Below are positions 3,257 to 48,675 of a stretch of DNA of 64,000 nt, piece after piece (position 1 is the stretch's first letter; every line of letters starts with the position of its first letter). The stretch is from the IMG/VR virus record IMGVR_UViG_2579779107_000005. One strand, written 5' to 3'. This DNA is from a virus (Duplodnaviria > Heunggongvirae > Uroviricota > Caudoviricetes). The position numbers and the translations under genes are program-made. The notes beneath the pieces were generated by a model. It did no database searches, was not told the origin of the DNA, and worked only from the letters and a program-made list of their open reading frames with translations.

Positions 3257-4810
3257 CTACTTCGAGACCTTGTCCGATCGCAGGTCGTTGCCCTTCGCGC
3301 CGTTGTCGCCGGTGCCCTTGTTCTTGCCCTGCTCGGGGTTGGCGGCCTGCTTGCCTGCGTCGCCTGAGGCGCCCTGGTCGGCGGGCGCGGCGGAGGCCTT
3401 CGCCTTGGCCTGGAGCTTGAGGCTCTTGAGGTTGTTCGGGCTCATCCAGCCGTCCGGGACTTCGTTGCCGGTGATTTCGAGCAGCTCCGAGATGCGGGCT
3501 TCGATCGGCTCGGGGTTGAACAGCCCGCTATTCAGCGCAAGGATCAGCGCCTGCAGCTCGCGGTACTGGTCCGCGGCGTCGTCGAGAGAGGAGAACGTGA
3601 CCTGCAGCTTCTCCGCGTCGGCACCCATCCAGAGGAGGATGCGACGGTCGAAGTCGATGTGGCGCTGGCGGCGAGCCTCCATGGCGAGTCGCGTGGGCAG
3701 GTCGAGGGTCGAGGCCGAGCCGTAGCTCGAGCCCGCGGAGCCGGGGTCGGACGACAGGGAGACGACGGAGACCTCGAGGGCGGCGGCGACGATCGCAAGG
3801 AGGCTGCGGCCGGAGTCGAAGTCGTAGCCCTTGCCGGCGGTCGGAAGTGGCACCAGCGCGTTCGCGCCGATGAGCGTGGAGCCCGCCTCGGAGGGCTGCG
3901 CGATGCGGGCGGCGACGTTCTCGGTCTCCTTCTTGGTGCCGGCGGCCACCTGGAAGGCGAACTGCGCCATGGCGTCGGACATGACCTTGCCCGACATGAT
4001 GAAGTCGCGGTAGACCTTCGCCCAGGCGAACGCGGTGAGCGCGTCGGGGACGCCGAACGCCCAGCCGACCTGCGAGTTGACGTGCATGTCGAAGATCACT
4101 CGGGCGTCGGGGGCCTTCTCACCCTCCTTGACGATGACCTGGAAGCCGGGCCTGTTCCGGCGGTCGTATGCGAGGTCGGTGTAGTGCCACTCCTTGACGG
4201 CCTTCGGGGCGCCGGTCTGGGCGTCGACGGTCGAGTAGTCGTCGTAGTCGATCCGGTAGGCGATGATTTCGTCGGGGCGTCGCGGGTTCACCTGGATCGC
4301 GCCAACGTACTCGAGCGACCAGGGCTCGAGGGAGTGGTCTGAGGGGTCGCCGAGCACGAGGTAGATGCTGTCGGTGTAGAGGGCGCTCTCACGCTCGTCA
4401 TGCGCCTGGGCGCCGAAGAAGGCGTGCTGGTTCAGGGGATCGCGGACGTACTTCGCCGTCTGCTTCTTGATGCCGGAGCCCTCGGGGAGCGCGTCGTCGT
4501 TGTAGTGGATGCCGCCGCGCCAGATGTTGTTGGTGCGAAGGCGGAGACCGCGCTGCATGTGGACGTTCCCGAGAGCGTTGCGCATCTTGCGCGACCATTC
4601 CTTGAGCTGGTCGAGGTCAGGCCCGGTGGACACCTCGGAGGTGCCGAAGACCTTGGACCAGCCGACGTCCTCCGCCTCGAGCATGGCGTTCCAGCGGAGC
4701 TGCTCGCGGAGGCCCTGCGATACCGCCTGCTCTCGGTCGAGCACCGCCTCGAGGGCGGCAAGGCGGTCTTCCTGGAGCACCAGCTCGGCTACAACGACTT
4801 CTTCACTCAC
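3257..4810 (-). CDS. portal protein
   Basis: Large ORF directly downstream of TerL. ORF track extends to 4984, but the likely start is the GTG (VSEEVVVAELV) at 4810 after the TerL stop at 4852. About 517 aa. Position and size fit a portal. Confidence 0.7.
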   Translation of the reverse strand: MSEEVVVAELVLQEDRLAALEAVLDREQAVSQGLREQLRWNAMLEAEDVGWSKVFGTSEVSTGPDLDQLKEWSRKMRNALGNVHMQRGLRLRTNNIWRGGIHYNDDALPEGSGIKKQTAKYVRDPLNQHAFFGAQAHDERESALYTDSIYLVLGDPSDHSLEPWSLEYVGAIQVNPRRPDEIIAYRIDYDDYSTVDAQTGAPKAVKEWHYTDLAYDRRNRPGFQVIVKEGEKAPDARVIFDMHVNSQVGWAFGVPDALTAFAWAKVYRDFIMSGKVMSDAMAQFAFQVAAGTKKETENVAARIAQPSEAGSTLIGANALVPLPTAGKGYDFDSGRSLLAIVAAALEVSVVSLSSDPGSAGSSYGSASTLDLPTRLAMEARRQRHIDFDRRILLWMGADAEKLQVTFSSLDDAADQYRELQALILALNSGLFNPEPIEARISELLEITGNEVPDGWMSPNNLKSLKLQAKAKASAAPADQGASGDAGKQAANPEQGKNKGTGDNGAKGNDLRSDKVSK

Positions 4811-4839: not shown

Positions 4840-4852
4840 TTTTCCCAGAAAC
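4840..4852 (-). promoter_or_regulatory. late-gene upstream motif (TTTTCCCAGAAAC)
   Basis: Motif abuts the TerL stop and lies about 30 nt upstream of the portal GTG. Confidence 0.4.
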
Positions 4853-6669
4853 TAAAGAGGGGTTCCCACTGCGTTCCGTCGGATGTTGAGCATCTCGAAG
4901 GGGTCGCGCATCACCGTGGTGCCCTTCTTCATCTTGTTCACGGGGTCGTCGAGCCCGGGAAGGAGGGCTGAGGCGTAGATGCACGTGTCTGCCGCGTCGG
5001 GCGACTTGACGCCTCGCTTCTTCATTGACTCCTTGCTCTCGATGAGCATGGCGTTGTAGGGCGGCGCGACCTCGTAGAGGATGTCGCCGAGCTGCTCGAG
5101 GAGTAGCGCATCCTCGGGATCGAGGTCGATGAGCCCCTTCTCCATGCGGTCGCGCATCTTGTCGTACTGGAAGGCGCGATCGTTCTTGTGCACGTTGGGA
5201 TCGGGCGCCGAGCGCGAACCGAGCATCGAGATGATGGTGTACGGCGGATTGGCGCCGGCGACGGAGAACAGGGCGTCGATGAGGCCCTGGCCGATGCCCG
5301 AGCCGTCGATTCGGACCTGCTGGACGCCCAGGTTGACGGCGTGCTGATGGATGAGCGTGGCCTGGCCGACCGTGTGCAGGAGTCCGCCGTTGGGGTCGTT
5401 CTCCACGCGGTCGGTGAAGGGCTTGCCCCGGAAGCTGTCGACGTAGCGAATGCGCGCGCCTTCAACATCGGAGACGTTCCCCAGCTCGCTCGTGACGTGG
5501 CCGTCATCGTGGACGGTCTCGACCCACTCGTACATGAGGCCGGACTCGGAGAGGTAGAGGAAGGTCGAGTCGCCGGACTCTGCGCGGGCGACGTCGACGC
5601 CGAGGAAGCGCCGGCTATCGTCCGGGATGAAGCACTCGGCGTCCCGAGCCTTGCCGAGCGCGTACTCCGAGAAGAGGTTGTTGCCCTCGTCGTAGGCGAA
5701 CATGCCGAGCACCCGGGAGCGGAAGCGCGGGGAGTCGACACCGTACTCGAGGCGCTTCTCCTCGACGTAAGTGGGGCCGGAGAGCGAGCGCAGTGCCTCG
5801 GCGGAGAGCCCGAGGCCGAGCGGCAGGAGGTCGTGTTCGGCCTTGCGCGGGCAGTCGTCGGCGCAGAGCCCGCCTCCGTGGAAGTTGGGGGAGTCGAGCA
5901 CCGAGATAGCGTGCAAATCCCAGGAGACGCCGTAGGGTTCGCCGGTCTTCTCGTTGATCTTGCCGGAGAAGATGGCACCCAGTCGCGACGCTGGGTTCGT
6001 CGGGTTGGCGATCAGCAGACGGCGCGAGGTGTCGTTCGAGGTGATGTTGGAGAGCGAGTCGATCATCGCCTCGTTCAGGCCCACCGCCTCGTCGCCGATG
6101 GCGAGGACGTACTGGGCATGGATGCCCTGGAAGGCGTCCTCCTTATGGTCCGGCGGCTTGCGACCCTGGGCGATGAGCACGCCGAGCGAGGTCTTCCACT
6201 CGTCGTTGCCGGTGATGTAGCCGGGGAGCTGGTGGTCCGGGTAGCCGGCGGTGTCCTTGCCCTCGGCCTGCAGGCGCTTGAACTCCTTGTGGCGGTCGAT
6301 CGACTTCGCCATGAGTCCACGGATTTCGCGCCAGAGGATCGCCTTGACCTGTGCGGCTGATGGAGCGGTGGTCGCCACGAATGCGGAGCCGAGCGGGTGC
6401 ACGTCGATCCACCAGCACACAAGCACGGCGGAGAGGAACGACTTGCCGACACCGTGGCCGGCGCGCACGGCGACGGACTTCTTCTTGCCGATGGCGATGG
6501 CGTAGGCAATCTCCTGCTGCTTCCACCACAGGTCGACGTCGAGGATGTCCTTGGCCCACAGCACCGGGTCGGTGATGTACTTCGCCTTGCGTGCGTCGGC
6601 GCGCAGACCGTCCTCGACGTGGGGGAGGAGGTCTGTGAGCCAGCCGGCGTCGGCGACCGCCATGCTCAC
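4852..6669 (-). CDS. terminase large subunit
   Basis: 605 aa. Walker A (VRAGHGVGKS) and Walker B-like (VLAIGDEA) ATPase motifs, plus a C-terminal nuclease-type acidic region. Classic TerL position upstream of portal. Confidence 0.85.
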   Translation of the reverse strand: MSMAVADAGWLTDLLPHVEDGLRADARKAKYITDPVLWAKDILDVDLWWKQQEIAYAIAIGKKKSVAVRAGHGVGKSFLSAVLVCWWIDVHPLGSAFVATTAPSAAQVKAILWREIRGLMAKSIDRHKEFKRLQAEGKDTAGYPDHQLPGYITGNDEWKTSLGVLIAQGRKPPDHKEDAFQGIHAQYVLAIGDEAVGLNEAMIDSLSNITSNDTSRRLLIANPTNPASRLGAIFSGKINEKTGEPYGVSWDLHAISVLDSPNFHGGGLCADDCPRKAEHDLLPLGLGLSAEALRSLSGPTYVEEKRLEYGVDSPRFRSRVLGMFAYDEGNNLFSEYALGKARDAECFIPDDSRRFLGVDVARAESGDSTFLYLSESGLMYEWVETVHDDGHVTSELGNVSDVEGARIRYVDSFRGKPFTDRVENDPNGGLLHTVGQATLIHQHAVNLGVQQVRIDGSGIGQGLIDALFSVAGANPPYTIISMLGSRSAPDPNVHKNDRAFQYDKMRDRMEKGLIDLDPEDALLLEQLGDILYEVAPPYNAMLIESKESMKKRGVKSPDAADTCIYASALLPGLDDPVNKMKKGTTVMRDPFEMLNIRRNAVGTPL

Positions 6670-7196
6670 TGCTGCTCGATCCTCTTCTCGACCGTCTCGA
6701 CGGCGGCCGGGAGCTTGAGCAGGAAGACCTCCTGGACCTCGGCGGTCGGGACGTCGTGACGACGCGCCAGCTCGTCGGCGGCGGCGAGCATGGCGACCTG
6801 GATCGCCGCGAGCATGATCCGGGCCTGGCCTTCGCGGACCTGGTTGGCGAGCTTCTCCGGGTCGATGCGGTTCTTGTTGATCTGGTCCTGCTTCATCTTG
6901 AGCGCCTTGAGCGCCGTGTTGATGTGCTGGACGCTTCCGGCTTCGATTCCCGTGCGCAGGCTCGAGATGATGTCGTTGATCGACTCGAGGAGGAGCTGTT
7001 CCTGCTCGAAGTACGTGAGCCAGTTGCGATTCTCGAGCAGGTCTCGGACGCGCTGTGCGGCCTGCTCAGGCGACACCACGCCATTGACGGCCTGCGACAT
7101 CTCCTTGGGGCTGAGGCCGTCAGAGGCGGCGCGCAGGAGCTTCCGGTCGAGGGGACCGTTCGCGAGACCGCGCTCGTACTTCTGGACTTCTGCCAC
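6666..7196 (-). CDS. terminase small subunit (putative)
   Basis: 176 aa ORF overlapping the TerL start by 4 nt. First gene of the late operon. Helical composition. No specific motif, so called by position. Confidence 0.45.
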   Translation of the reverse strand: MAEVQKYERGLANGPLDRKLLRAASDGLSPKEMSQAVNGVVSPEQAAQRVRDLLENRNWLTYFEQEQLLLESINDIISSLRTGIEAGSVQHINTALKALKMKQDQINKNRIDPEKLANQVREGQARIMLAAIQVAMLAAADELARRHDVPTAEVQEVFLLKLPAAVETVEKRIEQQ

Positions 7197-7216
7197 GCGA
7201 CTACTCTAGGGTGGCT

Positions 7217-7237
7217 CTCGGGAAACTCCCAGGAAAC
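7217..7237 (-). promoter_or_regulatory. late-gene upstream motif, two copies (CTCGGGAAACTCCCAGGAAAC)
   Basis: Lies 20-40 nt upstream of the TerS start at 7196. Confidence 0.45.
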
Positions 7238-7245
7238 GGGTGGCG

Positions 7246-7290
7246 AGAGCCCCGGTCGACTTGAACTCGGCCGGGGCTCTCGTTTTGGGC
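7246..7290 (+). terminator. hairpin plus T-tract (terminator-like), T-tract used as IS target
   Basis: GAGCCCCGG-N15-CCGGGGCTC followed by TCGTTTTGGG. The T-tract is duplicated at 10152-10166 as the IS target-site duplication. Confidence 0.35.
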
Positions 7291-7293
7291 TTG
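7279..7293. repeat. target-site duplication, left copy (CTCGTTTTGGGCTTG)
   Basis: Identical 15-mer at 10152-10166. Each copy directly abuts a terminal inverted repeat of the IS481-like element. Confidence 0.6.
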
Positions 7294-7487
7294 TGTCATG
7301 TCGCAGGAGATGGGTGACGGTTCTGTATCAGGACATCGGTGACAGTTTGGGTGGTCTTGGTGGTGACACTTCATGGCGGGGGCGCTGGTTGTTCTCGTGA
7401 CTCCGGCATTGCAGCGGCCATGAGGGAGGGGTGCGAGCAAAGGCTCGCACCCCTCCGGAATCGTCTATTCGGTTTTCACCGTCTTGG

Positions 7488-7715
7488 TTAGGTCGGGTGG
7501 TTGATGCGTGCTGGGGCCTGCTTGCGAGAACGCAGCCGCCGGTATCTCTGTCCGAGGAAGTAGAGGCCTGGTGCTCCGAGCGCGGTCGCGAGGATTGCCT
7601 GCATCGTGGCGTTGAGCATCACCAGGACGGCGGCCATGGCCGCGCCGACGAGCAACGACACGAAGAAGTCCTCTACGAGGTAGTAAAGCGACTTCGGTTC
7701 TTTAGCACTTGACAT
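7488..7715 (-). CDS. small membrane protein (IS passenger)
   Basis: 75 aa ORF with one strongly hydrophobic segment (FFVSLLVGAAMAAVLVMLNATMQAILATALGAPGLYFLG). Inside the IS, upstream of the secreted-protein gene. Confidence 0.3.
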   Translation of the reverse strand: MSSAKEPKSLYYLVEDFFVSLLVGAAMAAVLVMLNATMQAILATALGAPGLYFLGQRYRRLRSRKQAPARINHPT

Positions 7716-8634
7716 CGTAGATCAGCCCCGGTCCGACGTATGGAATGTTCAACTGGATGCAACGTCCTGCCTTGAGGGCGTTGGTGGCGGCGTTCTTGAC
7801 GATCTGGAAACCCAGGTTTGCCACAGTAGTACAGGCCGCACCAGCAAGCCCGCCGATGATGCAGAGATAGGAGAACATCTGCCCGGCGCTGGCGAAGTCG
7901 GCGGCCTGTTTCGTCTCTGCCTTAGTGAATTTCGCCGTCCTACCCCACCACAGCCAGGTAACCGACGGATCTGCGACCACCGGGAACGCTGTCGTGGCGG
8001 TGAAGTCTACGACCTGGGTGAGCGTGTTGCCATTCAGCTCGTAGTGCGTGGGGACGGCTACGCCGTTAGCGTCTTTCGCCCACGGTGCAGCGATGTAGGC
8101 GAGGGTAGCGCCGTCACCGTTCACGACGAAGTAGGCCTCGCCCGCCTGAAGTATCTGGCCCCCGTCTGGAACGGTGAGTGCGTAATCATACCGTTTCGGG
8201 GCGATTGCAGCGGTGATGACCGTGTTGATTTGAATCGAGCCGTCGGTTGTGACTACGGGGACCGAGCTGGAGCCGTTGTTGTTGTCGTAGGAGACGACAC
8301 CGTCTTTCTCGACGTTTACGTTGCTGGCGCCGCCGGCGTAAGGCAGCCCCACCGACAGCACGCCCGCCGCGGTGCCGAGCGTGATGCCCGAAACCGGGTC
8401 AATCGGGACAGTGACATCCGCCCCCGACACCTGCGCATCGATCGCGTTCTCACCCGAATCTGTCGTCGCGACTGCCGCAGCGTTGTTTGCAGTCTCCGGC
8501 GTCGCGCTCGTCACCGTGCCGAGGACGTCACCTGCGCCGTTGTCTGCAAGCGCGGGTGCAGCGCCCAACAGTGCTAGCGACATGATCACTGTCGTTACGA
8601 TCGCCGCTTCCCCCAGATATTTCCTGATCCGCAT
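7702..8634 (-). CDS. secreted protein of unknown function (IS passenger)
   Basis: 310 aa. N-terminal signal peptide (MRIRKYLGEAAIVTTVIMSLALLGAAPALA). Gly/Thr/Val-rich beta composition with a C-terminal Cys pair. Locally lower GC. Confidence 0.5.
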   Translation of the reverse strand: MRIRKYLGEAAIVTTVIMSLALLGAAPALADNGAGDVLGTVTSATPETANNAAAVATTDSGENAIDAQVSGADVTVPIDPVSGITLGTAAGVLSVGLPYAGGASNVNVEKDGVVSYDNNNGSSSVPVVTTDGSIQINTVITAAIAPKRYDYALTVPDGGQILQAGEAYFVVNGDGATLAYIAAPWAKDANGVAVPTHYELNGNTLTQVVDFTATTAFPVVADPSVTWLWWGRTAKFTKAETKQAADFASAGQMFSYLCIIGGLAGAACTTVANLGFQIVKNAATNALKAGRCIQLNIPYVGPGLIYDVKC

Positions 8635-8811
8635 TGTGTTTCAACTTTCTTGTCGAGACCAATGGAACTGACAGTGCTCGCCACCCGCCCTGCGGAGCGA
8701 TCGGATCAGCTACCCCCTGGATGGCGAACGTAACAGCCGCCGACCACGGCCCGCAATCCCGCGGCTCCAGCGGACGCAAACGGCCAGGAGCGTTTGGTTG
8801 GGAGGCTCATC

Positions 8812-10091
8812 GAGTGACAGCGAATGAACCTATCGATCCCCGAATCCGTCTCGCGATCGCACAGTGGCCCGACGATGCGCCGCATGGTGCCATCTCGACG
8901 TTCTGCATTGAGCACAGCATCTCACGCAAGTCGTTCTACGAGTTACGAAAACGCGCGCAGACGGAGGGGCCGGCGGCAGTGCTCGAGCCGCGGTCCAGAC
9001 GTCCGAAGTCAAGTCCAGCGCGGATTCAGGACAACATGAAGTCTCAGGCGCTACAGGTGAGAGCCGCCTTGGAATTGTCCGGTCTGGACCACGGGCCCAT
9101 CAGCGTGCACGACAGGATGCGCTCGATGGGAATCGACAGTGTGCCCTCGATCGCATCGCTGGCCCGAATTTTCCGGGAAGCGGGAGTGGCCAAACTTGAG
9201 CCAAAGAAGAAACCTCGATCGGCATGGCGGCGGTTCGTCTATCCAGCACCGAATGCGTGCTGGCAACTCGACGCCACCGAGTACGTCCTCACCGGTGGCC
9301 GTAAGTGCGTCATCTTCCAACTGATTGACGATCACTCCCGCTTCGCAGTCGCTTCTCATGTCGCATGGGGTGAAACTTCCGAGGCCGCCGTGGCGATATT
9401 CGACAAGGGGGTTCGTGCGCATGGAGTGCCCCAACGGCTCCTGTCCGATAACGGGGCAGCGCTGAACCCCTCGCGTCGTGGGATCCTGGGCCAACTAGTG
9501 AAACACGCCTCCGCCCTAGGAACCGAGGCCATCACCGGCAAACCCTACAAGCCGACCACTCAGGGCAAGAACGAACGTTTTCACCAAACCCTGTTCCGCT
9601 ACCTCGACAAGCAACCCCTGGCAACCACCCTGGCAGAGCTCCAGGGTCAGGTTGACACGTTCGACCGCATCTACAACACCCAGCGTCCCCACCAGGGACT
9701 CCCCGGACGCGCGACGCCCCAAACAGCGTGGGATGCCACCCCGAAGGCGGACGCACCCCGACCCAAACCAGAACAGCCCCTCTTCGCCCGAACGGCCAGC
9801 AAACGCTTCCACCGCGCGCCCGCACCGACCGAACTGCCAGACGGCGTCGTCCTCAGAAACCTGAGCAGCGCCGGCACGTTCACACTCGGACGAGTCACCT
9901 ACATCGTCGGCGGCCAGTACCGCTTCCAGCAGGTCCTAGCCATCGTTGACGGCGACACGATCACCGTCTCCAACCTCGACGGCGAGATCCTTATCGAGCA
10001 CACCCGCCCACCCGCCGGGGTGACCTACGTCGGCAACGGCAGACCCAGCGGCCCACGCCCCAAAAACTCCACAACGTCACCGAAGTCCTGA
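8812..10091 (+). CDS. IS481-family DDE transposase
   Basis: N-terminal HTH region then an rve-type DDE core (WQLDATE, LLSDNGAA, KNERFHQTL). ORF track starts at 8634, but GTG 8812 (VTANEPIDPRIRLAIAQW) is the likely start. Confidence 0.8.
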
Positions 10092-10151
10092 GACACCAAC
10101 TGTCGCCGGTCTCCTGATACAGAACTGTCACCGATGTCGCGAGACAAGACA

Positions 10152-10166
10152 CTCGTTTTGGGCTTG
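10152..10166. repeat. target-site duplication, right copy (CTCGTTTTGGGCTTG)
   Basis: See left copy at 7279-7293. Confidence 0.6.
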
Positions 10167-10179
10167 CGCTCGGCCCCAA

Positions 10180-10195
10180 TCGAACATATGTTCGA
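10180..10195. promoter_or_regulatory. perfect 16-bp palindrome TCGAACATATGTTCGA
   Basis: Perfect dyad in an AT-richer stretch between the DGQHR gene 3' end and the original TerS upstream region. Candidate operator/late-promoter element. Confidence 0.35.
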
Positions 10196-10371
10196 TACAT
10201 GGGATGGGGAAGGTCGAACGAAGAAGGTTTCCGGGGTCAGTACCCGGCGCCGCTGGATTGGGATGCGATCGAGCAGGAGTTACTCGCAAAGGCGGCAGGA
10301 GACAGCGAACCGCCCCAGCGCGGTCGGGATACGCCGGGGCGGCCGGTGAGCGACGAGCAGGACTAGGGGGC

Positions 10372-11808
10372 CTACAGGTCGCCCGTCTCGCGAGCTGCTC
10401 GCGCAGCCGCGGTCTCGGGGCGAAGGAGGGCGTCGGCCTCCTCCTCGGTCAGGCTGTCGAAGTCGAACTCCGCCTCTGCCGGCCGCGGGGTGGGCGCAGC
10501 GTTCAGGAAGTCCGGCTTGTCGATAGCCCAACCGACGAATGCGTCAACGACGGCGACCGCATCCTGGCGGCGGCTCGAGGGAGCGCTCATGCCGGGAATG
10601 AAGCTCGGCATGCCGATCTGCTCGAACAGCATCGAGCCCTCCCAGATGGGCACCTCGAGGTGCGGAGCGAGCTTCTTGAAGAACTCCTCGACCATGGCCG
10701 TCGAGAAGGCGTGGTCAGTCACCAGCTCGTAGCGCGTTGCGGCGAGGATGCGCAGGAAGACCGGAGCGCCAAGGAGCGAGTGGGCGCGCAGGTCGTCGGC
10801 CGTGATCTGCCCATGCTGGAGCTGGTAGAGCGGCGGGAAGGCGCGAACGAGCGAATCGAAGAAGTCCTTGGCGTTCTTCTCGATTTCCTTGTCGTTGAGC
10901 TGTGCCTCCACGCGCTTGCCGACTCGGCCTTCGTAGCCGACCGTGAGGGCGCGCACGGTCTCGATGACGTACTTGGCGGTGGTGAAGTACGGGGACTTCT
11001 GCGGTAGCCGGTCGGTCTCGGTCTCGACGCGATTCGCGAGCAGCGGGTGGCTCAGGATGTCCTCGAGCGCACGGTTGACCGCCTTGCGGGAGTCGAAGCG
11101 TGCGCGGACGGACGCCGTGATGCCCTTCGCGTTCTCGGCAATGTCGTAGAACGCCTGACGGTAGTTCTGGGGGTCGGCCTCCACCATGATCTGCACGGGG
11201 ATGCGCTCGCGGGTGAATCGCGCCGCCTGGGTCTCGAGCGCCGCCTTCTGGCGCTCGAACTCGGCGACAGCATTTCCATCCTCAATGCGGCGCGCCTTCT
11301 TGATTAGCTCGCTGATCTTCGCTACGTCGGCGTTTATCCCGTCGAGGGCCTCGTACAGACCGAGGATTCGGTGCTGACCGTCGAGGATGTGGACCTCGCC
11401 AACCGCGGAGCGCTGGAAGGAGACGGCGCCGAAGGCCACGCCGTGTGCCTCATCGGTTGCGGCCTCGAACTCGAAGGGGCGCTCGGTGCGCAGAATGATG
11501 CCGGGCACGACCCACTCGGGGGTGGCGCGCAGGTATGTGGCGAAGTCGCTCGCGTGCTTGGGGTTGATGCGGCGGTTCCCCACAGTGGGGACCTCGGGGT
11601 TCGGCCGCGGGACGAGGGACATGATCTGCAGCAGCGACAGGTCCAAGAGGTAGTTCGTACGACCGCCCTGGACGAACCGAGTGCCGTAGTAGGTCTCCTT
11701 GGTGTTGTAGCCCGTGGCCGCGGGCAGTGTGGACAGATTCAGTGACATATTCATCCCGTCAAGGGTGGTGGGGTGCGCGGGCTGCGCGTTTTGCGGTCTA
11801 TATATCAT
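10372..11808 (-). CDS. DGQHR-domain protein (DndB-like, ParB/Srx-fold)
   Basis: 478 aa with the signature ILDGQHRILG and surrounding DndB-type conserved blocks. No dndACDE or dpdA partners visible in the window. Confidence 0.7.
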   Translation of the reverse strand: MIYRPQNAQPAHPTTLDGMNMSLNLSTLPAATGYNTKETYYGTRFVQGGRTNYLLDLSLLQIMSLVPRPNPEVPTVGNRRINPKHASDFATYLRATPEWVVPGIILRTERPFEFEAATDEAHGVAFGAVSFQRSAVGEVHILDGQHRILGLYEALDGINADVAKISELIKKARRIEDGNAVAEFERQKAALETQAARFTRERIPVQIMVEADPQNYRQAFYDIAENAKGITASVRARFDSRKAVNRALEDILSHPLLANRVETETDRLPQKSPYFTTAKYVIETVRALTVGYEGRVGKRVEAQLNDKEIEKNAKDFFDSLVRAFPPLYQLQHGQITADDLRAHSLLGAPVFLRILAATRYELVTDHAFSTAMVEEFFKKLAPHLEVPIWEGSMLFEQIGMPSFIPGMSAPSSRRQDAVAVVDAFVGWAIDKPDFLNAAPTPRPAEAEFDFDSLTEEEADALLRPETAAARAARETGDL

Positions 11809-11963
11809 CCCGCTGACACCTGAGTGTTCGCGGTGTGACTAATCGAACCACGGTTCTTTAAGTGAGTCAATTCCCTGTCTGAGGATGTGCCTATGCTCAG
11901 ATAGCCGGCTCCTCGGGGGGCCAGGAGCACCCGCAGTCTCACCAAATATTCGGAGCGTCACGC

Positions 11964-12203
11964 ATGCAAACCCGCAACACCCAGATCGTGTCCCTTCACA
12001 CCACCGACGGGCAGGAGGTTCTGCTCTATCCGGGCCGCGATGGCAGTCTCTTCGTGGAGCGGGTCAGGCCGAACGGCCGCCGCGATGCCCAGTCGATCAT
12101 GCAGTTCGACCCATCCGAGCTGCTCAGTGCCGTGAGTACCGTCTCTACGCGGACGCAGCCGATCTTCACCGTCGAAGGGCTCGCGCAGAACCTCTCTGCC
12201 TAA
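11964..12203 (+). CDS. hypothetical protein (isolated plus-strand gene)
   Basis: 79 aa ORF with ATG start and protein-like composition. Followed by a perfect hairpin terminator. Divergent from the DGQHR gene. Confidence 0.35.
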   Translation: MQTRNTQIVSLHTTDGQEVLLYPGRDGSLFVERVRPNGRRDAQSIMQFDPSELLSAVSTVSTRTQPIFTVEGLAQNLSA

Positions 12204-12224: not shown

Positions 12225-12263
12225 CGAAACGGCCCCCCAGTTTTGGGGGGCCGTTCGTTTTGT
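12225..12263 (+). terminator. rho-independent terminator
   Basis: AACGGCCCCCC-AGTTTT-GGGGGGCCGTT hairpin followed by CGTTTTG. Confidence 0.6.
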
Positions 12264-19494: not shown

Positions 19495-19599
19495 CTAGTT
19501 GACGAGCAGGTACAGGGTGATGAGGTCGGCCAGGGCGAGTGCCCCGGCCACAGCCAGGAGGATCGAGTTGACCCTCCTGGCGCGGCGGGGGGTGGTCAC
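19495..19599 (-). CDS. small membrane peptide
   Basis: About 34 aa (VTTPRRARRVNSILLAVAGALALADLITLYLLVN). GTG start overlapping the SPFH gene stop. Confidence 0.25.
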   Translation of the reverse strand: MTTPRRARRVNSILLAVAGALALADLITLYLLVN

Positions 19600-20591
19600 T
19601 ACTTGGCCGGCGTCTGGATCAGCGGGTTCGAGCCCTGGGGGACGACGAACACGGTGCCGGCCTTGAGGGCGTCGATGTAGTGCTGCTGCAGCACCTCGGG
19701 GGTCAGCGACTGCGTGAGGAGCTGGTTGGCCTTGGCGTCGGCCTCGGCCTTGGTGACGGCCTGCTGCGAGGAGACCTTGGCGGCGTCGAGCTTGGCCTGC
19801 TCCTTGGTGACGTCGATCTGAGCCTGCTGGGCGGCGGCGTAGCTGTCGGTGACCGCCTGGGGAGCGCGAATCTCCTGCAGCGAGATGCTGTCGACCGTGA
19901 CGCCGGCCTTGGCCCAGCGGGTCTCGAGCGCGTTCTTGATCTTGGCCTCGACGTCGGCACGCTTGGTGAGCAGGTCGATCGTGGAGAAGGCGTTCGGCAC
20001 CTCGCGGACGACGGCGCGGATGTCCTGCTCGATGAACGACTTCTTGAAGTTGTCCTCGGTCTTGAACTGCTTGTAGATGTCCGTGACGGCGGAGGCGACG
20101 ACCGAGTAGCGGACGGCCACGTCGATGTTGGAGGTCACGCCGTCCTGGTCCTGGACGGTGATCTGGGGGCCGGCCGCCTGGCCGCCGTTGTTGTCGTTCT
20201 GGTTGCCGCTGGCGCCGGCGAAGACGATCTGCTGGGTGCCGGTGCTGAACGAGATGGTGTCGACCCACGGCGCCTTGGTGTGGAGGCCGGATTCGGTGGT
20301 GGAGCCGACGAGGTTGCCGGTCCAGTCCTTGAGCTGCACCGACTCGCGCGTCTCCTGCGTGTAGAAGAGCTGCGGGACGCTGGCGCCGAGCCCGCCGATG
20401 ATGGCTGCGACGGTCAGGCCGAGGGCGACCCACTTGGCGACGGCGCTGGGGCCGTACTGGATGTAGTAGCGCTCCTCCGCCTTCTTCTGCCTGTGGATCG
20501 CCAGGGCCTTCTTGTAGGCGCGGGTGAGGGCGATGGTGACGACGATGCCGACCAGGCCCAGGATGAGCAAGATGAGTCCGAAAACGAACAC
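19599..20591 (-). CDS. SPFH/band-7 (prohibitin/HflK-like) domain membrane protein
   Basis: 330 aa. N-terminal TM helix, then an SPFH-type core (IDVAVRYSVVASAVTDIYKQF...), then a C-terminal coiled-coil (QQAQIDVTKEQAKLDAAKVSSQQAVTKAEADAKANQLL). Confidence 0.65.
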   Translation of the reverse strand: MFVFGLILLILGLVGIVVTIALTRAYKKALAIHRQKKAEERYYIQYGPSAVAKWVALGLTVAAIIGGLGASVPQLFYTQETRESVQLKDWTGNLVGSTTESGLHTKAPWVDTISFSTGTQQIVFAGASGNQNDNNGGQAAGPQITVQDQDGVTSNIDVAVRYSVVASAVTDIYKQFKTEDNFKKSFIEQDIRAVVREVPNAFSTIDLLTKRADVEAKIKNALETRWAKAGVTVDSISLQEIRAPQAVTDSYAAAQQAQIDVTKEQAKLDAAKVSSQQAVTKAEADAKANQLLTQSLTPEVLQQHYIDALKAGTVFVVPQGSNPLIQTPAK

Positions 20592-22049
20592 GTATCCTCC
20601 AGGTGATTTAGCGGGCTATTTGCCCTCTGGAATCCCACTATGGGGCAAGTGCGGCACTAGTTCAAGAAATTTAGCGGGCAATTTTCGGCGGTCCCCGCGG
20701 GGAGCTGGAAGGAGTGGCCGGCGAGGGGTTTCGTCGAAGCGGTGCAACTGGGGCAATCGCACCGCTCGGGCGCCGGCGAGGCGCACACCCGCCCCCGGCC
20801 TTTCGCGCGCGTCCCCCTGTCTTAAAATCTGAGGGCTTTCAGGTGGTTCCCAGGTTCGCGTTCGCGGAAAAAAAGATTCGCTGTTTCTGGAGCGTGATCT
20901 ATACCCCCCTCTGTGCGCGCGCGTGTGTGTTCTCTTTTCGATCATGGGGTGCATCAATCGTAAGTTGTTTCTTGATTCGGCTAGTGGTGTGTTAGTGTCT
21001 CTCTTGTCAGCGCGAAAGGCCCCCGGGCCGGAGGTGCTAGCGATCGAATCTTGAGAATTGAATATCGACCTAGCGGGGGAGCGATCCCCATACGCAATAG
21101 CTACAGGCGCTAACCAGAATCCGGCATGCGGGGATATGAAAGGGCAATGCGAGCAATCGCAGAGCTGCAAAGAATGCGCTTGAGAATCAGCAGACTGGAC
21201 AGAGCACGCCCCCGGGCCGCTACTCACGTACTTGCATACTTAGTCGCCACGCTGAATCACTAGCTAAAGTGCAAAACAGATAGCGACCTGCTAGAGTCGG
21301 TATCACGCCGAACGGGGCAAACCGGGAAACCGGTCACACCCCGCGAGACGCATCAAGATACGCAAACGCGAAACCAGCAACGTGCGGGCTGCAACCCAAT
21401 CCGACCTGGTTGAGCACCCGTCCTGGGCCACGGGCCTAGCCGAGACAGGGATTCACGTAGAGCGCCATGCGCACGGTTGTCCGTGCTCAGTCCGGTGGGC
21501 TTGACCCACACGGCCATGCTGCTCCACGCCCGAAATAGGCAGGGATGCGGAATCGCAACTTGGGAATTCAATAGTGGACTCTTAGCGCGCTAATGCCATA
21601 GCGCTCGCCCCTCGACACTGGGCGGCCTAGGCGCGTAGAGCATCATCCGATCGGCCATAGTGCCGCGCATCGGATCGCGCTTGGTAAGCGCGTGTCGTAC
21701 TAGCTCGACCTGTGCGAGCAAGTAGCCGAACAACCTCTCAGCTACAGAGGCACCAGTACGAGTGTGCCTAGGCGGAATTGCAGCCCGTCACCCCACAGTG
21801 GAACCGACCGAACGCCCTCTCCTGGGCGTGCACACCAGCGGGTCGGGAACCGTGACAGGACCACGGAACGAATTGAGTACCAAGATTTGCACCACCCCTA
21901 GCGCTGTCAGCCCGGGTATCCATCCCCGGCATGCGAACCACGCCGCAGGGTCACGCGGCAGCCCCGTGCTCCCACTACAGGTGGGCGCGGTCAGACCGGG
22001 CACGGGGCACGCATCATCCACCATCCGCACACACCAGACAGGGGACCAC
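20592..22049. other. long non-coding, lower-GC divergent switch region
   Basis: About 1.46 kb with no convincing ORF (the listed ORFs are low-complexity artefacts). Two TTAGCGGGC(T/A)A motif copies at 20607-20618 and 20671-20682. A duplicated module, CTTGAGAATTGAATATCGACCTAGCG at about 21047 and CTTGGGAATTCAATAGTGGACTCTTAGCG at about 21566. GC-rich hairpins (GGCCCCCGGGCC). Confidence 0.5.
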
Positions 22050-22329
22050 CATGTCCAAATCCGCCACCCTCGACCGGCCCACCATCACCCACGCGATCGA
22101 CACGGCGGGGCGCGACCTGGGTCCCGTGTCCAAGCGCACGGCCGAGTACCTGTACCTCGCCGACGGATCGCGCATCGCCCTCCACCGTGTGCAGAAGCTC
22201 GCGGCCACCCCCATGCCCACCCAGCAGAAGACCGTCCAGCCGGGCGTCACCCTGCACCAGTTCCCGGACGGCCAGTACCACGTGTCCACCACGGACCAGT
22301 GGCTCGCCGCCTGGGGTGAGGAGCTGTAG
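22050..22329 (+). CDS. hypothetical protein
   Basis: 93 aa from ATG 22050 (MSKSATLDRPTITHAI...). The longer upstream frames are artefacts. Confidence 0.45.
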
Positions 22330-23823: not shown

Positions 23824-24600
23824 GTGACCACCGAAGACACCACCCCCGACGACGGCCGCAGCGTCGTCGCCTACGACAACCTCGACCGTGCGCTCACCAT
23901 CTGGGGAGCCACGTTCTACGACCAGACCTGGACCGCCCAGGAGAAGCGTTACCTGCTCGATGAGGCCGAGGCTGGCTTCGACGCCACGAACGAAGACCCC
24001 GACGGCTTCCGAGTCTGGGTCTCCACCTTCGGCCTCTACAACGCCGGGAGTCTCGCGGGCTACTGGGTCGCCGCCGAGCACGCCCCGACCACCGTGCCCG
24101 AGTTCATCGCTGGCATGGTCATCCGCAACCACAGCGTCGGCAAGAGCTTCCTGCAGAACGTGGGGGAGGAGCTGAACTGCTTCGACATCGAGAACAGCCC
24201 CGTCGACGCCGAGATGCACCCGAGCGCCGCGAAGGCATGGGCAGAGGCCATCAACGCGACCATCGCTGACCAGGGCGATCAGGTCACCACCTCGCTCATT
24301 GTCACCTTCATCCGCGACCACACCGGGGGCATCTGGCCCGACGACCTCACCAGCACCTTCGACGACCGCTTCCACGGCTTCTGGGAAGACGGCATCGCCT
24401 CCTGGTGGGTTGAGAACGTCTGGGAGACCTGGGTCGCCGAGTACAAGCAGCTCGCCGAGCACTCCTACCCGCGAGTCACGCTCCCCGACTGGCTGGAGTA
24501 CGCCGCATGGGGGATCGCCAAGAGCCAGGCCGAGGACTACCGCCTCTCCGGGTGGGCCGAGATTCACACCAACGACGGTGTGGCGGTGTTCAGCGAGTGA
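23824..24600 (+). CDS. hypothetical protein
   Basis: 258 aa ORF. Trp-rich, acidic. Confidence 0.5.
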   Translation: MTTEDTTPDDGRSVVAYDNLDRALTIWGATFYDQTWTAQEKRYLLDEAEAGFDATNEDPDGFRVWVSTFGLYNAGSLAGYWVAAEHAPTTVPEFIAGMVIRNHSVGKSFLQNVGEELNCFDIENSPVDAEMHPSAAKAWAEAINATIADQGDQVTTSLIVTFIRDHTGGIWPDDLTSTFDDRFHGFWEDGIASWWVENVWETWVAEYKQLAEHSYPRVTLPDWLEYAAWGIAKSQAEDYRLSGWAEIHTNDGVAVFSE

Positions 24601-26290: not shown

Positions 26291-26332
26291 AACCCCTCAC
26301 GAACACTCGAACATTCATTCGATTGGAGCATC

Positions 26333-26719
26333 ATGACGAACACCGCGGAGAGAGAGACGCACGCCGATGCGAGCGCACCTGTGACCCTTCCGGCGCGGAA
26401 GTTCTTCGCGCTCGGCACCGAGGACCTGCTGGGCGGCGAGCACATCGGCCGGGTCATCTACCTCGAGCACTTCATGCGGATCGACCGGTTCGGCAGCCGC
26501 AACAGCAAGGAGCTGCGCGTCCGCAGCAAGACCCACATCGGGACCGTCGCGGCGGTCGTCGAGCACCGCGGCACCCGTGAGTACGGCGACATCGAGAGCC
26601 TGCGCCAGGCCGACAACTCGGACTTCCCCGACTACCACGTCGAGGTCATCTTCGCCGACGGCACCCACATCTTCATCCACGAGCGGGACACCGCGAACGT
26701 CACGGTGGTCGAGGCGTGA
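26333..26719 (+). CDS. hypothetical protein
   Basis: 128 aa ORF. Confidence 0.45.
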   Translation: MTNTAERETHADASAPVTLPARKFFALGTEDLLGGEHIGRVIYLEHFMRIDRFGSRNSKELRVRSKTHIGTVAAVVEHRGTREYGDIESLRQADNSDFPDYHVEVIFADGTHIFIHERDTANVTVVEA

Positions 26720-37804: not shown

Positions 37805-38833
37805 GTGTCACACGACGACATGACCGAAGACGAGATGAGGGACCTGATGGTCCTGGCGCTCAACCCGACCACCGAGCGCGACCTCCAGATCGAGGTCGGC
37901 GCATCCAACCTGTCCAACCCGTGCGAGCGGTGCCAGGCATTCGAGCTGGTCGGCGTCGACCGCAGCGACCCGATCCTCGACAACGCCTGGGGCGGCCGAG
38001 TGATCGGCACCGCCATCCACAAGCACGCCCAGGGCAACCTCGACAAGGCGGCCGAGACCGCCAACCAGTTCGGCGACGACCTGGCGAAGCTCGGCTGGAT
38101 GTACCCGGGCATGGCACCCGAGAAGCCGGTGTGCCTCGGTGAGCTTCTGCCCGGCCGCACCATCACCTCGACTACCGACCTCTGGCTCCCCAGCCGTCGC
38201 ACCGTCGCCGACATCAAGAACACCGACCTGCGCCACCTCGCCTACTTCCGCGACGCGCTCTCGATCATGCGCGGCGATGGCCCCATCTTCGGGCGCGACC
38301 ACGAGTTCGTCGTGGTCTACGAGCTGACCACCGTCAAGTCCGGCCCGAGCAAGGGTCAGGAGGTCTACCGCAAGGCCAGCAAGGGCGTCTCCGAGCGCGC
38401 CTACGCCGAAGGCATCGCCATGGCGCAGTACAAGATCACCCAGTACCTCCGCCAGCTCCACCTCTACGGGTACGCCCTCGAGCTGGGCGGCGAGACGGTC
38501 AAGCTGCTCTTCATCAACTTCGTGGCCCGCGACTCCGCCATGACCGTCGACAACATCGGAACAGCCCGCTATTTCGAGGTCAACGCGCCCCGCGGCATCT
38601 CCGCCCACCGCTTCGTCTACAGCCGCGACTACGCCGCAGGCATCTGGAAGGAGGCGCAGGCCAAGGCCAAGGCGCTCGACGACGGCAGCAAGGAGCCGCT
38701 CGACTACATGGCACACCCGCTGTGCCTCGTCTGCTCCAGCGAGGAGACCCGCCTCTCCCGCGCGTCGGTCACGGTCGAGGCCCCGACCATCACCGCGGTC
38801 GATGAGTGGGCTGTCCCGGCGGTGGCCGCGTGA
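37805..38833 (+). CDS. RecB/Cas4-like nuclease (PD-(D/E)XK fold with Cys cluster)
   Basis: N-terminal CERC and C-terminal CLVC Cys pairs flank a core with nuclease-like acidic/lys motifs. Start GTG 37805 (AGGAG 9 nt upstream) or ATG 37820. Confidence 0.45.
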   Translation: MSHDDMTEDEMRDLMVLALNPTTERDLQIEVGASNLSNPCERCQAFELVGVDRSDPILDNAWGGRVIGTAIHKHAQGNLDKAAETANQFGDDLAKLGWMYPGMAPEKPVCLGELLPGRTITSTTDLWLPSRRTVADIKNTDLRHLAYFRDALSIMRGDGPIFGRDHEFVVVYELTTVKSGPSKGQEVYRKASKGVSERAYAEGIAMAQYKITQYLRQLHLYGYALELGGETVKLLFINFVARDSAMTVDNIGTARYFEVNAPRGISAHRFVYSRDYAAGIWKEAQAKAKALDDGSKEPLDYMAHPLCLVCSSEETRLSRASVTVEAPTITAVDEWAVPAVAA

Positions 38834-39705
38834 TCGAACTCAGGACAATCATCGGGACGGGCTTCGTCACGACTCCGACGTTCGAGGCGATGCGCTTCCC
38901 GGCAGGGGAGTCGCACGTCAAGATCGCTAACGAGAACGCCGGCAAGGGGTCGCTCACCGAGGTGGCGCGGCTCTACGGTCACGACCCGGCCGACCTGTTC
39001 ACCTTGGCGATGTGGGCGGACGCCGTGCACCAGCGTGGTTCTCGCGCCGTCGCCCAGATTCCCTACCTGCCGGGCGCCCGCGCCGACCGCGGGCTCCCGT
39101 TCGGAGCCAAGGTCTACGCGAAGTTCCTCAACGAGCTGCAGCTCGACAAGGTGGTCGCCGTCGACGTGCATTCGCCCGTCATGGAGAACCTCGTCGAGCG
39201 GCTCGCCGTCGTCGACTCTGCCCCCATCATCCGCCGGCAGGTCGTCGGACGCCCCGACCGCGACGAGCACGCCCAGCGCCACACCGGCATCATCGCCCCC
39301 GACAAGGGAGCGCGCCGCCGTGCCGAAGCGGTCGCCGCCATCTGTGGGCTCCCGGTCTATCAAGCCGAGAAGCACCGCGACGAGGCCACCGGCAAGCTCT
39401 CCGGCTTCTCATGCGAGCCTCTTCCCGAGGACGGCAAGTTCCTCGTCGTCGACGACATTTGCGACGGCGGCGGGACCTTCATGGGGCTCGCTGCCGCCAC
39501 CGGGGTGCCCAGAGAGCGACTCGACCTCTGGGTGACGCATGGCGTCTTCACCGGCGCCGCACCCGCCCTGCGCCACCGCTTCGGCCACCTCTGGACCACC
39601 GACTCGTTCTCGAGCCCGCTGCTCAAGGAGGACTGGCTGCCGGTCCCCGCCAACTTCCTCACCCGCATCTCCCTCGCCCCCTACATGAACGGAGCCCTTC
39701 TGTGA
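38830..39705 (+). CDS. Prs-like phosphoribosyltransferase (ribose-phosphate pyrophosphokinase / possible ADPR-PP synthetase)
   Basis: PRPP-binding loop FLVVDDICDGGGT. Prs-like length (about 291 aa). GTGA-overlapped with the upstream gene and overlaps the NAMPT-like gene. Confidence 0.65.
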   Translation: MIELRTIIGTGFVTTPTFEAMRFPAGESHVKIANENAGKGSLTEVARLYGHDPADLFTLAMWADAVHQRGSRAVAQIPYLPGARADRGLPFGAKVYAKFLNELQLDKVVAVDVHSPVMENLVERLAVVDSAPIIRRQVVGRPDRDEHAQRHTGIIAPDKGARRRAEAVAAICGLPVYQAEKHRDEATGKLSGFSCEPLPEDGKFLVVDDICDGGGTFMGLAAATGVPRERLDLWVTHGVFTGAAPALRHRFGHLWTTDSFSSPLLKEDWLPVPANFLTRISLAPYMNGALL

Positions 39706-43305: not shown

Positions 43306-43396
43306 CAGTAGCCAGCTAAATCGGGCCGCTGCGCACCGATCATCACTCCCCATGTGGGTAAAGACGATCCGGTCGAGATGCGCAGCGGTCCCATCG

Positions 43397-43484
43397 TCCT
43401 CGTAGCTCAGCAGGCAGAGCACTGAGTCGCCGGCGCCGGCGCGAACGAGACAGAGGCCGCGGGTTCGAACCCCGCCGAGGACGC
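43397..43484 (+). tRNA. tRNA-like element (atypical or degenerate; anticodon arm not canonical)
   Basis: Canonical acceptor pair GTCCTCG/CGAGGAC, D-arm TAGCTCAGCAGGCAGAGC and T-arm GCGGG-TTCGAAC-CCCGC. The 37-nt middle is a GC palindrome (GCCGGCGCCGGC) with no 5-7-5 anticodon stem-loop that I could find. Confidence 0.35.
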
Positions 43485-48427: not shown

Positions 48428-48675
48428 TGGCCTGGTGGAGAAGGCGCGCGCTGAACCGCGCCGAGATGGACCTGTACGCCAAGCTGCAGCGCGTGGCGGC
48501 CACCGATAGCCCGCTGATCGAGACGGGCGGCCGAGGCGACAAGACCCTGCGCGTCGGCCGCTCCCTCGCCAAGCGACGGCTCGCCCTCGTCGACGGCCAC
48601 GTGATCCGGCCGACGCCGGCAGCAATCGAGTTCCGCCGCCTTATCGCGGCCCGACAGAAGATGGGAGTGGCCTGA
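48427..48675 (+). CDS. hypothetical basic protein
   Basis: 82 aa ORF. Confidence 0.35.
   Translation: MAWWRRRALNRAEMDLYAKLQRVAATDSPLIETGGRGDKTLRVGRSLAKRRLALVDGHVIRPTPAAIEFRRLIAARQKMGVA

Follow-up and report, generated by a model that had tools for sequence, protein, structure and literature searches.

The viral sequence IMGVR_UViG_2579779107_000005 from IMG/VR, whose 64,000 nucleotides (nt) are referred to here as the window, carries on its minus strand a gene for a protein with the DGQHR motif of the DndB family. It can be stated with high confidence that this protein is a genuine DndB-family member with a ParB-type fold, that it stands alone and that it is unrelated to the insertion sequence (IS) located next to it. 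Moreover, as judged from its sequence, the protein is not DndB or DpdB in function. The role that it does play is not settled. Its family membership, the retention of its motifs, the lack of partners, the fixed position of its gene, the separate transcription unit, a co-conserved small open reading frame (ORF) and an enrichment of LexA boxes are matters of observation, and the reading tentatively preferred here is that of a nucleoside triphosphate (NTP)-gated, DNA-binding regulator acting at the junction of early and late genes. In this reading, it is presumed that the protein binds DNA and depends on NTP; its regulatory target and the part played by the small ORF are likewise presumed.

Family membership and predicted fold

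An earlier reading made from the letters alone (hereafter, the sequence-only reading) had reported a minus-strand ORF of 478 amino acids (aa) with the signature ILDGQHRILG between the late operon and the early block. This ORF is present at 10372..11808, and the gene map agrees with its location (Table 1). The true start is most likely M21, an ATG at 11748 that would yield a protein of 458 aa, because the deposited Leifsonia aquatica protein has that form and homologues align from there. Residues 21–478 are 100% identical to this deposited 458-aa protein, whose public record bears the name ‘DNA sulfur modification protein DndB’. In addition, the G+C content at third codon positions (GC3) of the gene is 0.87, as compared with 0.87–0.98 for the phage genes around it, and this phage-like codon bias marks it as a real gene and no chance ORF.

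The assignment of the protein to the DGQHR/DndB family of the ParB fold, also made in the sequence-only reading, is borne out by profile searches. The Pfam model of DndB (PF14072) matches residues 43–394 with 118.3 bits (E=4.9e-34; cut-off 29.1) and the NCBIfam model of the DGQHR domain (TIGR03187) matches with 73.4 bits (cut-off 58.85), while the scan of NCBIfam returned no model besides DGQHR and DndB at E<=1. The DndB model of PADLOC matches at 8e-13, and PHROGs yields a weak match to one unannotated family and nothing else. Among 120 homologues of 41–80% identity, ILDGQHRILG and all motif residues are invariant, comprising QGGR, NRxI..HA, DGQHR, FxDIAxN and several arginines, and this invariance indicates selection on the nucleotide-switch site. 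With a profile of the subfamily, 962 cluster representatives were recovered at E<=1e-3 among 1.84 billion, and 217 at E<=1e-30; on these sequence comparisons, the subfamily is a modest-sized and distinct branch.

The AlphaFold model built from the 120 homologues is confident (predicted local distance difference test, pLDDT, 93.9). Its N-terminal part is an alpha/beta domain, after which come long helices and then a C-terminal domain that is all-alpha. The N-terminal domain has the fold of the ParB/Srx superfamily, and the protein as modelled would thus join a ParB-fold domain of the NTPase type to an all-alpha C-terminal domain. A Foldseek search of the model against the PDB gave no meaningful match, and neither did a profile search of the PDB sequences give any; among solved structures, the nearest in fold are the N-domains of two restriction proteins, SspE and BrxU, and PadC was also matched.

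Genes of the window were called by composition and annotated by means of Pfam, PHROG and tblastn, and the Pfam scan took in most called ORFs of at least 60 aa, including all those of about 150 aa or more. Within this scope, the protein can be set beside the systems that it resembles. It shares with DndB (PF14072, TIGR03233) the Pfam family, the DGQHR motif and the combination of a ParB-fold N-domain with a helical C-domain. However, no dndCDE genes lie near it in the window or in its relatives, its gene forms a unit of its own next to the terminase genes of prophages, and the protein is ~100 aa longer than the TIGR03233 model, with a C-terminal extension in the ‘long’ form found in phages. DpdB, an ATPase, is likewise built of these two domains, its ParB-fold NTPase domain being followed by an alpha-helical C-domain devoid of nuclease motifs (PMC10164549), a likeness that on the side of the window protein comes from the model. 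Unlike the latter, DpdB contains the motif DGQQR, and no dpdA, dpdC or preQ0 genes were found among the scanned window ORFs. In SspE, BrxU and DndI, N-domains of the DUF262/GmrSD type are fused to a C-terminal HNH/DUF1524 nuclease to form restriction effectors, whereas the window protein has no such domain: besides DndB, Pfam shows only a weak match to GmrSD_N (15.5 bits; cut-off 33.2), and inspection of the homologue alignment shows that EHxxP is absent and Rx4-6H is not conserved. Finally, the clamps ParB, KorB and Noc, which are switched by cytidine triphosphate (CTP), have in common with the window protein the superfamily fold (PadC match), the concept of nucleotide-gated DNA binding and a frequent location on mobile elements (PMC12704722). 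Nevertheless, no canonical ParB model, either of the TIGR00180 type (NCBIfam) or PF02195 (Pfam), matches the protein at E<=1, and no parA partner was detected among the scanned window ORFs; since the prophage appears to be integrated, no partition role is needed.

These comparisons bear on the idea that the protein is a component of a DNA modification pathway, of the phosphorothioate (PT) or the 7-deazaguanine type, whose partners lie outside the window. Family resemblance is all that speaks for this idea, which is highly improbable. The score against the DndB equivalog TIGR03233 falls far short of the cut-off (35.1 bits against 328). Moreover, as the sequence-only reading had noted, the window offers no Dnd or Dpd partner, since DndA/C/D/E, DpdA/TGT, QueC/D/E and a dedicated nuclease are likewise missing from the scanned ORFs, and clustering of the neighbours of 26 related loci (±10 kb) shows that only phage genes recur, with no Dnd, Dpd or Que partner among them. 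As the window probably covers most of the prophage, with a few kb that appear unseen, the earlier suggestion that partners are encoded in the unseen part of the genome is not sustained.

Position and conservation in prophages

The window had been taken for a phage genome. It is probably a prophage in a bacterial chromosome and not the genome of a free phage, because the DndB-like protein and the product of the neighbouring small ORF both have 100% identity to proteins of L. aquatica, in each case encoded on a contig of 638,457 bp. In a relative (locus L002; related loci bear numbers of this kind), the head module runs straight into host genes for a TetR protein and a hydrolase. The related contigs on which the gene is linked to the terminase, either Microbacteriaceae prophages or viral contigs, span 57–75 kb, and no integrase was found among the scanned ORFs of the window. 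The prophage map is permuted in an unusual manner, with the head module (terS to the conserved gene c7) at one end and the tape-measure and tail genes at the other; the ends of the window are 1–425 and 61953–64000, and the head end adjoins the host genes in relatives (L002 18196–21361). From the location of these modules at opposite ends, the attachment site seems to lie between them. Searches of 50,697 phage records, by megablast with the segment 7000–13000 and by tblastn with the DndB-like protein, gave no match, so that no cultured phage among them carries the gene.

Homology to the DndB-like protein defined 63 loci, of which 26 come from species-representative genomes, 33 from IMG/VR by an alignment-based scan and 4 from assemblies. 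Homologues of terS and/or terL follow the gene directly and on the same strand in 39 of these loci, usually continued by portal, protease, capsid and c7, while on the upstream side many loci also share the genes for deoxynucleoside monophosphate (dNMP) kinase, NT5C, exonuclease and RNA ligase. In the window, the terS candidate, for which neither Pfam nor PHROG gives a match, is the first gene of the head/packaging operon, and it is its homologues that directly follow the DndB-like gene in relatives. The identity of the DndB-like proteins (39–80%) is equal to or above that of TerL (24–79%), and identity to the window protein stays at 39–49% regardless of whether TerL is 25% or 55% identical; the gene is therefore conserved like the structural genes and does not co-vary with the type of TerL.

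A neighbour-joining tree places the short forms (~410–420 aa) in a clade apart from the long forms (~450–480 aa), which are the phage-linked proteins. The short forms occur in another type of phage (L028), in a region with a relaxase that resembles an integrative and conjugative element (ICE) (L030), on plasmids, in what by eye is a type I restriction–modification neighbourhood (L005), in a DUF6361-PLD-helicase cluster (L004) and beside an integrase and a TIR protein of the CAP12/Pycsar type (L023).

As a control for the bias of sampling by the DndB-like protein, a second sampling was based on TerL and gave 78 usable viral loci. Only 6 of them carry the gene, all 6 already known, and of the 17 viral contigs in which TerL is at least 35% identical and the upstream sequence extends for 3 kb or more, 11 are devoid of it. 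These 11 loci (TerL identity 35–50%, GC 50–60%) probably belong to other hosts of lower GC content, and before terS they carry tail genes, glutaredoxin-like genes or small genes with no assignment. The claim that the gene is a core gene of the lineage was dropped once this sampling had revealed so many relatives without it. Thus, the gene is a conserved, position-fixed feature of a high-GC sub-lineage and not a universal core gene. As regards the possibility, raised in the sequence-only reading, of a conserved core gene with a known structural or replication role, the gene is indeed fixed in position and conserved like capsid and portal across the 39 loci, but none of the known roles can be ascribed to it, and it is missing from the lower-GC TerL relatives and from cultured phages. 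In full-text searches of the literature, no paper described a DndB-like gene with a fixed place ahead of the terminase, nor one that has a LexA-controlled small ORF as its partner; what comes closest is the general remark that proteins of the ParB-CTPase fold are common on prophages and plasmids (PMC12704722).

Such a constant neighbourhood raises the question of an accessory role in packaging, in which the protein would assemble close to the pac or cos site of the phage DNA to help the small terminase recognize or cut it. Besides the 39 terminase-linked loci, the gene divergently adjoins terL in L046 and L052, and in L021 and L056 (~11630–12157) an HNH-endonuclease-like ORF (HIDHV...N...CN by eye) separates the DndB-like gene from terS, in the HNH-terminase order that is classic for cos phages. 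However, a terminator and a promoter part the gene from terS, its identity does not track the type of TerL, it is found away from the terminase in L028, L045 and L064, and TerL relatives package their DNA without it, all of which makes a packaging function very unlikely.

The sequence-only reading had also stressed that the gene lies beside a mobile element. The adjacency is real and it is incidental, since the intact inverted repeats and the 15-bp target duplication of the IS481-like element (Table 1) exclude the gene. The element interrupts the spacer that separates the DndB-like gene from terS. Without it, the spacer would measure ~290 bp, as compared with 64–836 nt in the 39 relatives, none of which has a gap comparable to that of the window. 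The intact duplication suggests that the insertion is recent. Two passenger ORFs of the element, both opposite in strand to the transposase, are also listed in Table 1. Accordingly, the proposal that the gene is cargo of the IS or the remnant of a decayed defence cassette, which has only its nearness to the element in its favour, is already refuted by the present data: the gene is outside the boundaries of the IS, its GC3 is that of a phage gene as opposed to the 0.74–0.77 of the IS genes, and full-length orthologues hold the same slot next to the terminase genes at the distances given above.

Transcription unit and LexA boxes

From its flanking signals, the DndB-like gene looks monocistronic, with the end of the early arm on one side and the late promoter on the other. 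On the upstream side, a perfect 12-bp GC-rich hairpin stands between the small ORF and the early operon, in which the dNMP kinase gene stops at 12362; as a probable bidirectional terminator, it would part the module from this operon. On the downstream side, a putative terminator hairpin stood ~220 nt past the stop codon of the DndB-like gene before the IS was inserted. Hairpins of −20 kcal/mol or stronger follow the stop codon in 30 of 33 non-redundant related spacers, and the mean energy of the spacer hairpins is −30.2 kcal/mol against −18.7 kcal/mol for coding controls.

Next to this hairpin, a −10-like TAGAGT ends 6 nt before the GTG of terS, which is apparently leaderless. The pattern TA[AG][AG]NT-N5-10-start precedes terS in 23 of 30 non-redundant loci as compared with 1.2% of control stretches, and this conserved −10 element directly before the start codon suggests a leaderless late transcript. 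A second candidate element, CCTGGGAGTTTCC, occurs at five sites of the window, all of them intergenic and on the late strand; it was not upheld as a late-promoter element, as shuffled sequences were only marginally beaten (3 of 100).

In the divergent intergenic region between the two genes of the module, CCGACATTG (<=1 mismatch) is found in 11 of the 28 such regions of related loci, where ~0.8 would be expected. Moreover, a palindrome, TTAGTccACTAA, is located just upstream of the DndB-like start in L001, L044, L047, L049 and L057, and before terS as well in L001 and L049. Both sequences are candidate operators.

In 43 of 65 loci, a divergent ORF of 60–90 aa precedes the DndB-like gene; it is retained in L028 and L045, where the link to the terminase is lost, and occurs in none of the non-phage loci. 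The main family of these ORFs is coherent, and a variant takes the same place in the window, L002 and L003. The window variant has a tblastn match in L002 (47% over 45 aa), while the homologue search with it found only itself; its AlphaFold 2 model, which was computed from the single sequence and is of low confidence, shows four strands and a helix.

The consensus of the actinobacterial LexA box, as known from mycobacterial and corynebacterial boxes, is TCGAAC-N4-GTTCGA, and sequences with up to two mismatches to it were counted as LexA-like. In 13 of 33 loci, such a box is found in the 320 nt before the DndB-like start, as compared with ~1.4 expected from the density of these boxes in the same loci (~9-fold). 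In L020, L022, L044, L049, L058, L060, L061 and L062 the box is 7–35 nt before the start of the small ORF, and in L027 and L059 it is ~57–67 nt from it. In the window, the region between the two genes holds a weak LexA-like box, which by itself is not significant, as the window has 7 such sites where 4.2 are expected.

A perfect LexA box does occur on the other side of the gene, ahead of a 55-aa ORF (orf55) that converges on the DndB-like gene and whose transcription would run antisense into it. The 18-mer at this box had no match in 100 shuffles. The 18-bp palindrome ATCGAACATATGTTCGAT had been considered as a parS-like site for the DndB-like protein and was set aside for the likelier reading as a host LexA box, as it fits TCGAAC-N4-GTTCGA exactly and the same geometry precedes unrelated small ORFs. 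By tblastn, orf55 matches L032 at 4228–4323 (56%, E 7.6e-8), with a perfect box at L032 4327–4342, and this cassette of box and ORF occupies a different place there than in the window. Judged from these sequences, orf55 appears to be a small, mobile, SOS-controlled gene. Another near-perfect box, TCGAACATTCATTCGA, is located in the replication block.

Regulation, defence and the wider prophage

Late activators such as RinA and ArpU hold the slot before the late promoter and terS in other Gram-positive phages. The likeness of the DndB-like gene to RinA, ArpU and Ltr in this respect is positional only, as there is no relationship in sequence or fold (no RinA/ArpU family of Pfam or PHROG matches the protein) and the window protein is three times larger. 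The likeness of the protein to DndB, in turn, is one of family: DndB binds palindromic DNA and is an autoregulator (PMC4507180), its binding has been described as modulated by ATP (PMC10853773), and a bacterial DndB-like protein binds both ATP and GTP (PMC12704722). A parallel for the small ORF is offered by LexA-controlled antirepressors, namely Tum of phage 186 and those of the Gifsy prophages (PMC3121763), which are also small prophage genes behind a host LexA box. In this case, the likeness concerns the divergent small ORF in many relatives and orf55 in the window; unlike these antirepressors, the divergent ORF of the window has no strong box, and no homology to them was detected.

A regulator is tentatively favoured because of the autoregulation by DndB, the binding of ATP and GTP by DndB-like proteins, the slot shared with late activators and the coupling to LexA boxes. 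The DndB-like gene and the small divergent ORF form a two-gene module that closes the early arm directly before the late/packaging operon in temperate siphoviruses, a lineage found in Microbacteriaceae and further Actinobacteria of high GC content. According to this model, and by analogy with the ATP-modulated autorepressor DndB and the nucleotide switches ParB and KorB, the N-terminal nucleotide-switch domain would confer NTP-dependent binding of phage DNA at the early/late junction, and the protein would in this way control its own transcription unit and/or the adjacent late operon. In addition, the SOS response of the host would act on this control through the small partner, in front of which many relatives have a LexA box. 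The sequence-only reading had listed a regulator among its options, and the data are compatible with it.

Several points weigh against this model, which is drawn from sequence alone. A separately transcribed gene at the junction of modules is an equally classic layout of a prophage ‘moron’, a gene for defence or conversion, and 458 aa is large for a dedicated transcription factor. An operator common to the promoter of the gene and the late promoter was seen only in L001 and L049, which share TTAGTCCACTAA, and the mean length of words shared by the two promoters was 7.8 against 7.4 in cross-locus controls; since this result is no different from the controls, the idea of a shared operator was dropped as general evidence. 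The gene is not indispensable for this type of virion and packaging, because 11 of the 17 TerL relatives and all the cultured phages searched do without it. Moreover, the small ORF of the window scores ~4 bits with the hidden Markov model of the main family, so that homology is not significant, and the link to the SOS response is indirect in the window, where the perfect box belongs to orf55 and the box at the promoter of the DndB-like gene has two mismatches. A variant of the regulator, in which a ParB-fold, NTP-gated protein takes the place of a CI-type repressor, silences the late/packaging operon or maintains lysogeny and is relieved by a small SOS-induced antagonist, would amount to a novel type of prophage switch and is unlikely.

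The moron-like layout, with its own promoter region and terminators, is also what would be expected of a prophage defence or exclusion factor. In such a case, a ParB/Srx-fold NTPase, either with nuclease activity or devoid of it, expressed from its own promoter in the lysogen would block the DNA of incoming phages or plasmids, and the SOS-induced small partner would turn it off at induction. The nearest solved folds belong to restriction proteins, short-form relatives are found in defence-island or integrative contexts (L005, L004, L023), and many TerL relatives have no such gene. Furthermore, the N-domain of DndB is related to the abortive infection (Abi) proteins AbiU1 and AIPR and is fused to HEPN (PMC3632139), and ParB-superfamily proteins have been proposed as conflict effectors (PMC10853773). 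However, the protein has no nuclease domain or motif, as described above, and PADLOC-DB v2 recognizes it only through the DndB component model, i.e., as no stand-alone or complete defence system. In addition, prophage defence loci usually vary, whereas in 39 loci this gene keeps its position and its divergence follows that of the structural genes. A defence function is therefore considered somewhat unlikely.

The sequence-only reading had also raised the option of anti-defence. In this case, the protein would shield the incoming or replicating element from host restriction, possibly PT- or deazaguanine-dependent, for example by mimicking or titrating components of the DndB/DpdB type or by depleting a nucleotide cofactor. 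The family does occur on varied mobile elements (phages, the ICE-like region of L030 and plasmids), and its neighbours on an Aeromonas plasmid include RadC/JAB, DUF4942 and an ‘antirestriction protein’. Other candidate counter-defence genes are present in the window as well, i.e., a Prs-like and NAMPT-like pair and a weak ArdA-like match. Nevertheless, the gene is not in an early-entry position, as it forms a separate unit at the far end of the early arm, beside the late promoter; it has no tie to Dnd or Dpd, and the SOS-linked partner would be left unexplained. Anti-defence is thus an unlikely function, and a regulator at the early/late junction is retained as the preferred reading.

Some further features of the window are listed in Table 1. 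The overlapping Prs-like and NAMPT-like genes resemble a phage pair for the reconstitution of NAD+ (NARP1-type), which presumably counters NAD-depleting defences. The 308-aa product annotated by PHROG as ‘DNA topoisomerase’ shows by eye RQLYYQ and a Toprim-like motif with DHDPSG, reminiscent of the Topo VI-A/Spo11 type. A tRNA gene of unusual length (88 nt) is located just upstream of PrimPol/DUF3987. Moreover, the ~1.4-kb stretch at 20592–22050 lies between two divergent early operons, has a lower GC content (0.61–0.63) and gave neither a convincing ORF nor an Rfam match; it could hold an immunity or regulatory region, an origin or undescribed RNAs.

Table 1. Coordinates of the module, the neighbouring elements and other features of the window.
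Feature	Position	Strand	Remarks
Putative terS, terL, portal, head protease, capsid, conserved 140-aa gene c7	7196 to 1	minus	
Large terminase subunit (terL)	4852..6669	minus	tblastn matches an annotated terminase large subunit, <=40% identity
Putative small terminase subunit (terS)	6666..7196	minus	from position and size only; 4-nt overlap with terL
Late-operon promoter-like element	7197..7233	minus	CCTGGGAGTTTCC (7233-7221), then -10-like TAGAGT (7208-7203)
GC hairpin, putative terminator of the DndB-like unit	7244..7282	minus	19-bp arms; -30.9 kcal/mol
IS481-like insertion element	7294..10151		2.86 kb
IS terminal inverted repeats	7293-7352 and 10093-10152		imperfect, 60 nt
Direct duplication flanking the IS	7279-7293 and 10152-10166		exact, 15 bp, CAAGCCCAAAACGAG
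IS passenger ORF	7488-7715	minus	75 aa, hydrophobic
IS passenger ORF	7702-8634	minus	310 aa; signal peptide-like N-terminus by eye; no Pfam match
IS transposase	8634-10091	plus	rve-type; Pfam rve, rve_3, HTH_28
Perfect LexA (SOS) box	10180..10195		TCGAACATATGTTCGA; only perfect copy in the window
orf55	10199..10366	plus	55 aa; starts 3 nt after the LexA box; stop 6 nt from the DndB-like stop
DndB-like/DGQHR protein	10372..11748	minus	458 aa from M21 (most likely start); ORF extends to 11808 (478 aa)
Divergent intergenic control region	11749..11963		GC 0.57; TTGACT -35-like hexamer
Weak LexA-like box	11843-11858	minus	AAGAACCGTGGTTCGA; perfect GAAC-N4-GTTC core, 2 mismatches to the full consensus
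Small divergent ORF	11964..12203	plus	79 aa; 100% identical to a hypothetical protein of L. aquatica; GC3 0.84
Perfect 12-bp GC-rich hairpin, probable bidirectional terminator	12228..12255		AACGGCCCCCCAGTTTTGGGGGGCCGTT
Early block: SPFH, DnaQ-like exonuclease, RNA ligase, NT5C, dNMP kinase	20591 to 12362	minus	
SPFH/Band 7 protein	19599-20591	minus	first gene of the early block
Stretch with no convincing gene called	20592-22050		~1.4 kb
Replication block: SNF2 helicase, exonuclease, Prs-like and NAMPT-like pair, AAA_24, PrimPol/DUF3987, topoisomerase-like protein	22051-51001	plus	
ArdA-like match	23824-24600	plus	weak (E 5.8e-4, under the Pfam cut-off)
Near-perfect LexA box	26307-26322		TCGAACATTCATTCGA; 1 mismatch; just upstream of gene 26333-26719 (plus)
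Prs-like (ribose-phosphate pyrophosphokinase-like)	38806-39705	plus	phrog_619, 1e-66; overlaps the next gene
NAMPT-like (nicotinamide phosphoribosyltransferase-like)	39702-41222	plus	phrog_448, 3.5e-188; Pfam NAPRTase, NAMPT_N
tRNA	43396-43483	plus	ARAGORN tRNA-Ala(GGC); Rfam tRNA 49.7 bits
Topoisomerase-like protein	48675-49601	plus	308 aa; no Pfam match; phrog_6247, 1.5e-92
Tape measure, tail proteins, tail-collar fibre, VanY/PG-binding lysin, metallophosphatase	64000 to 51060	minus	

The public name of the protein calls for caution in the transfer of names, since it refers to DNA sulfur modification and no genes of that process are present among the scanned ORFs of the window. ParB-fold NTPases of the DndB type have so far been studied mainly within the DNA-modification systems Dnd and Dpd, and here a distinct, stand-alone branch is found at the early/late boundary of dozens of actinobacterial prophages, where it has a small partner that is often wired to the SOS response. 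The module is compact, consisting of two genes and a control region of ~100–300 bp, and its host, Leifsonia aquatica, is cultivable. A role in defence or anti-defence, if true, would represent a new single-protein activity of the ParB fold, while a role as regulator, if true, would add a nucleotide-switch protein to the ways in which phages time their late genes or their induction.

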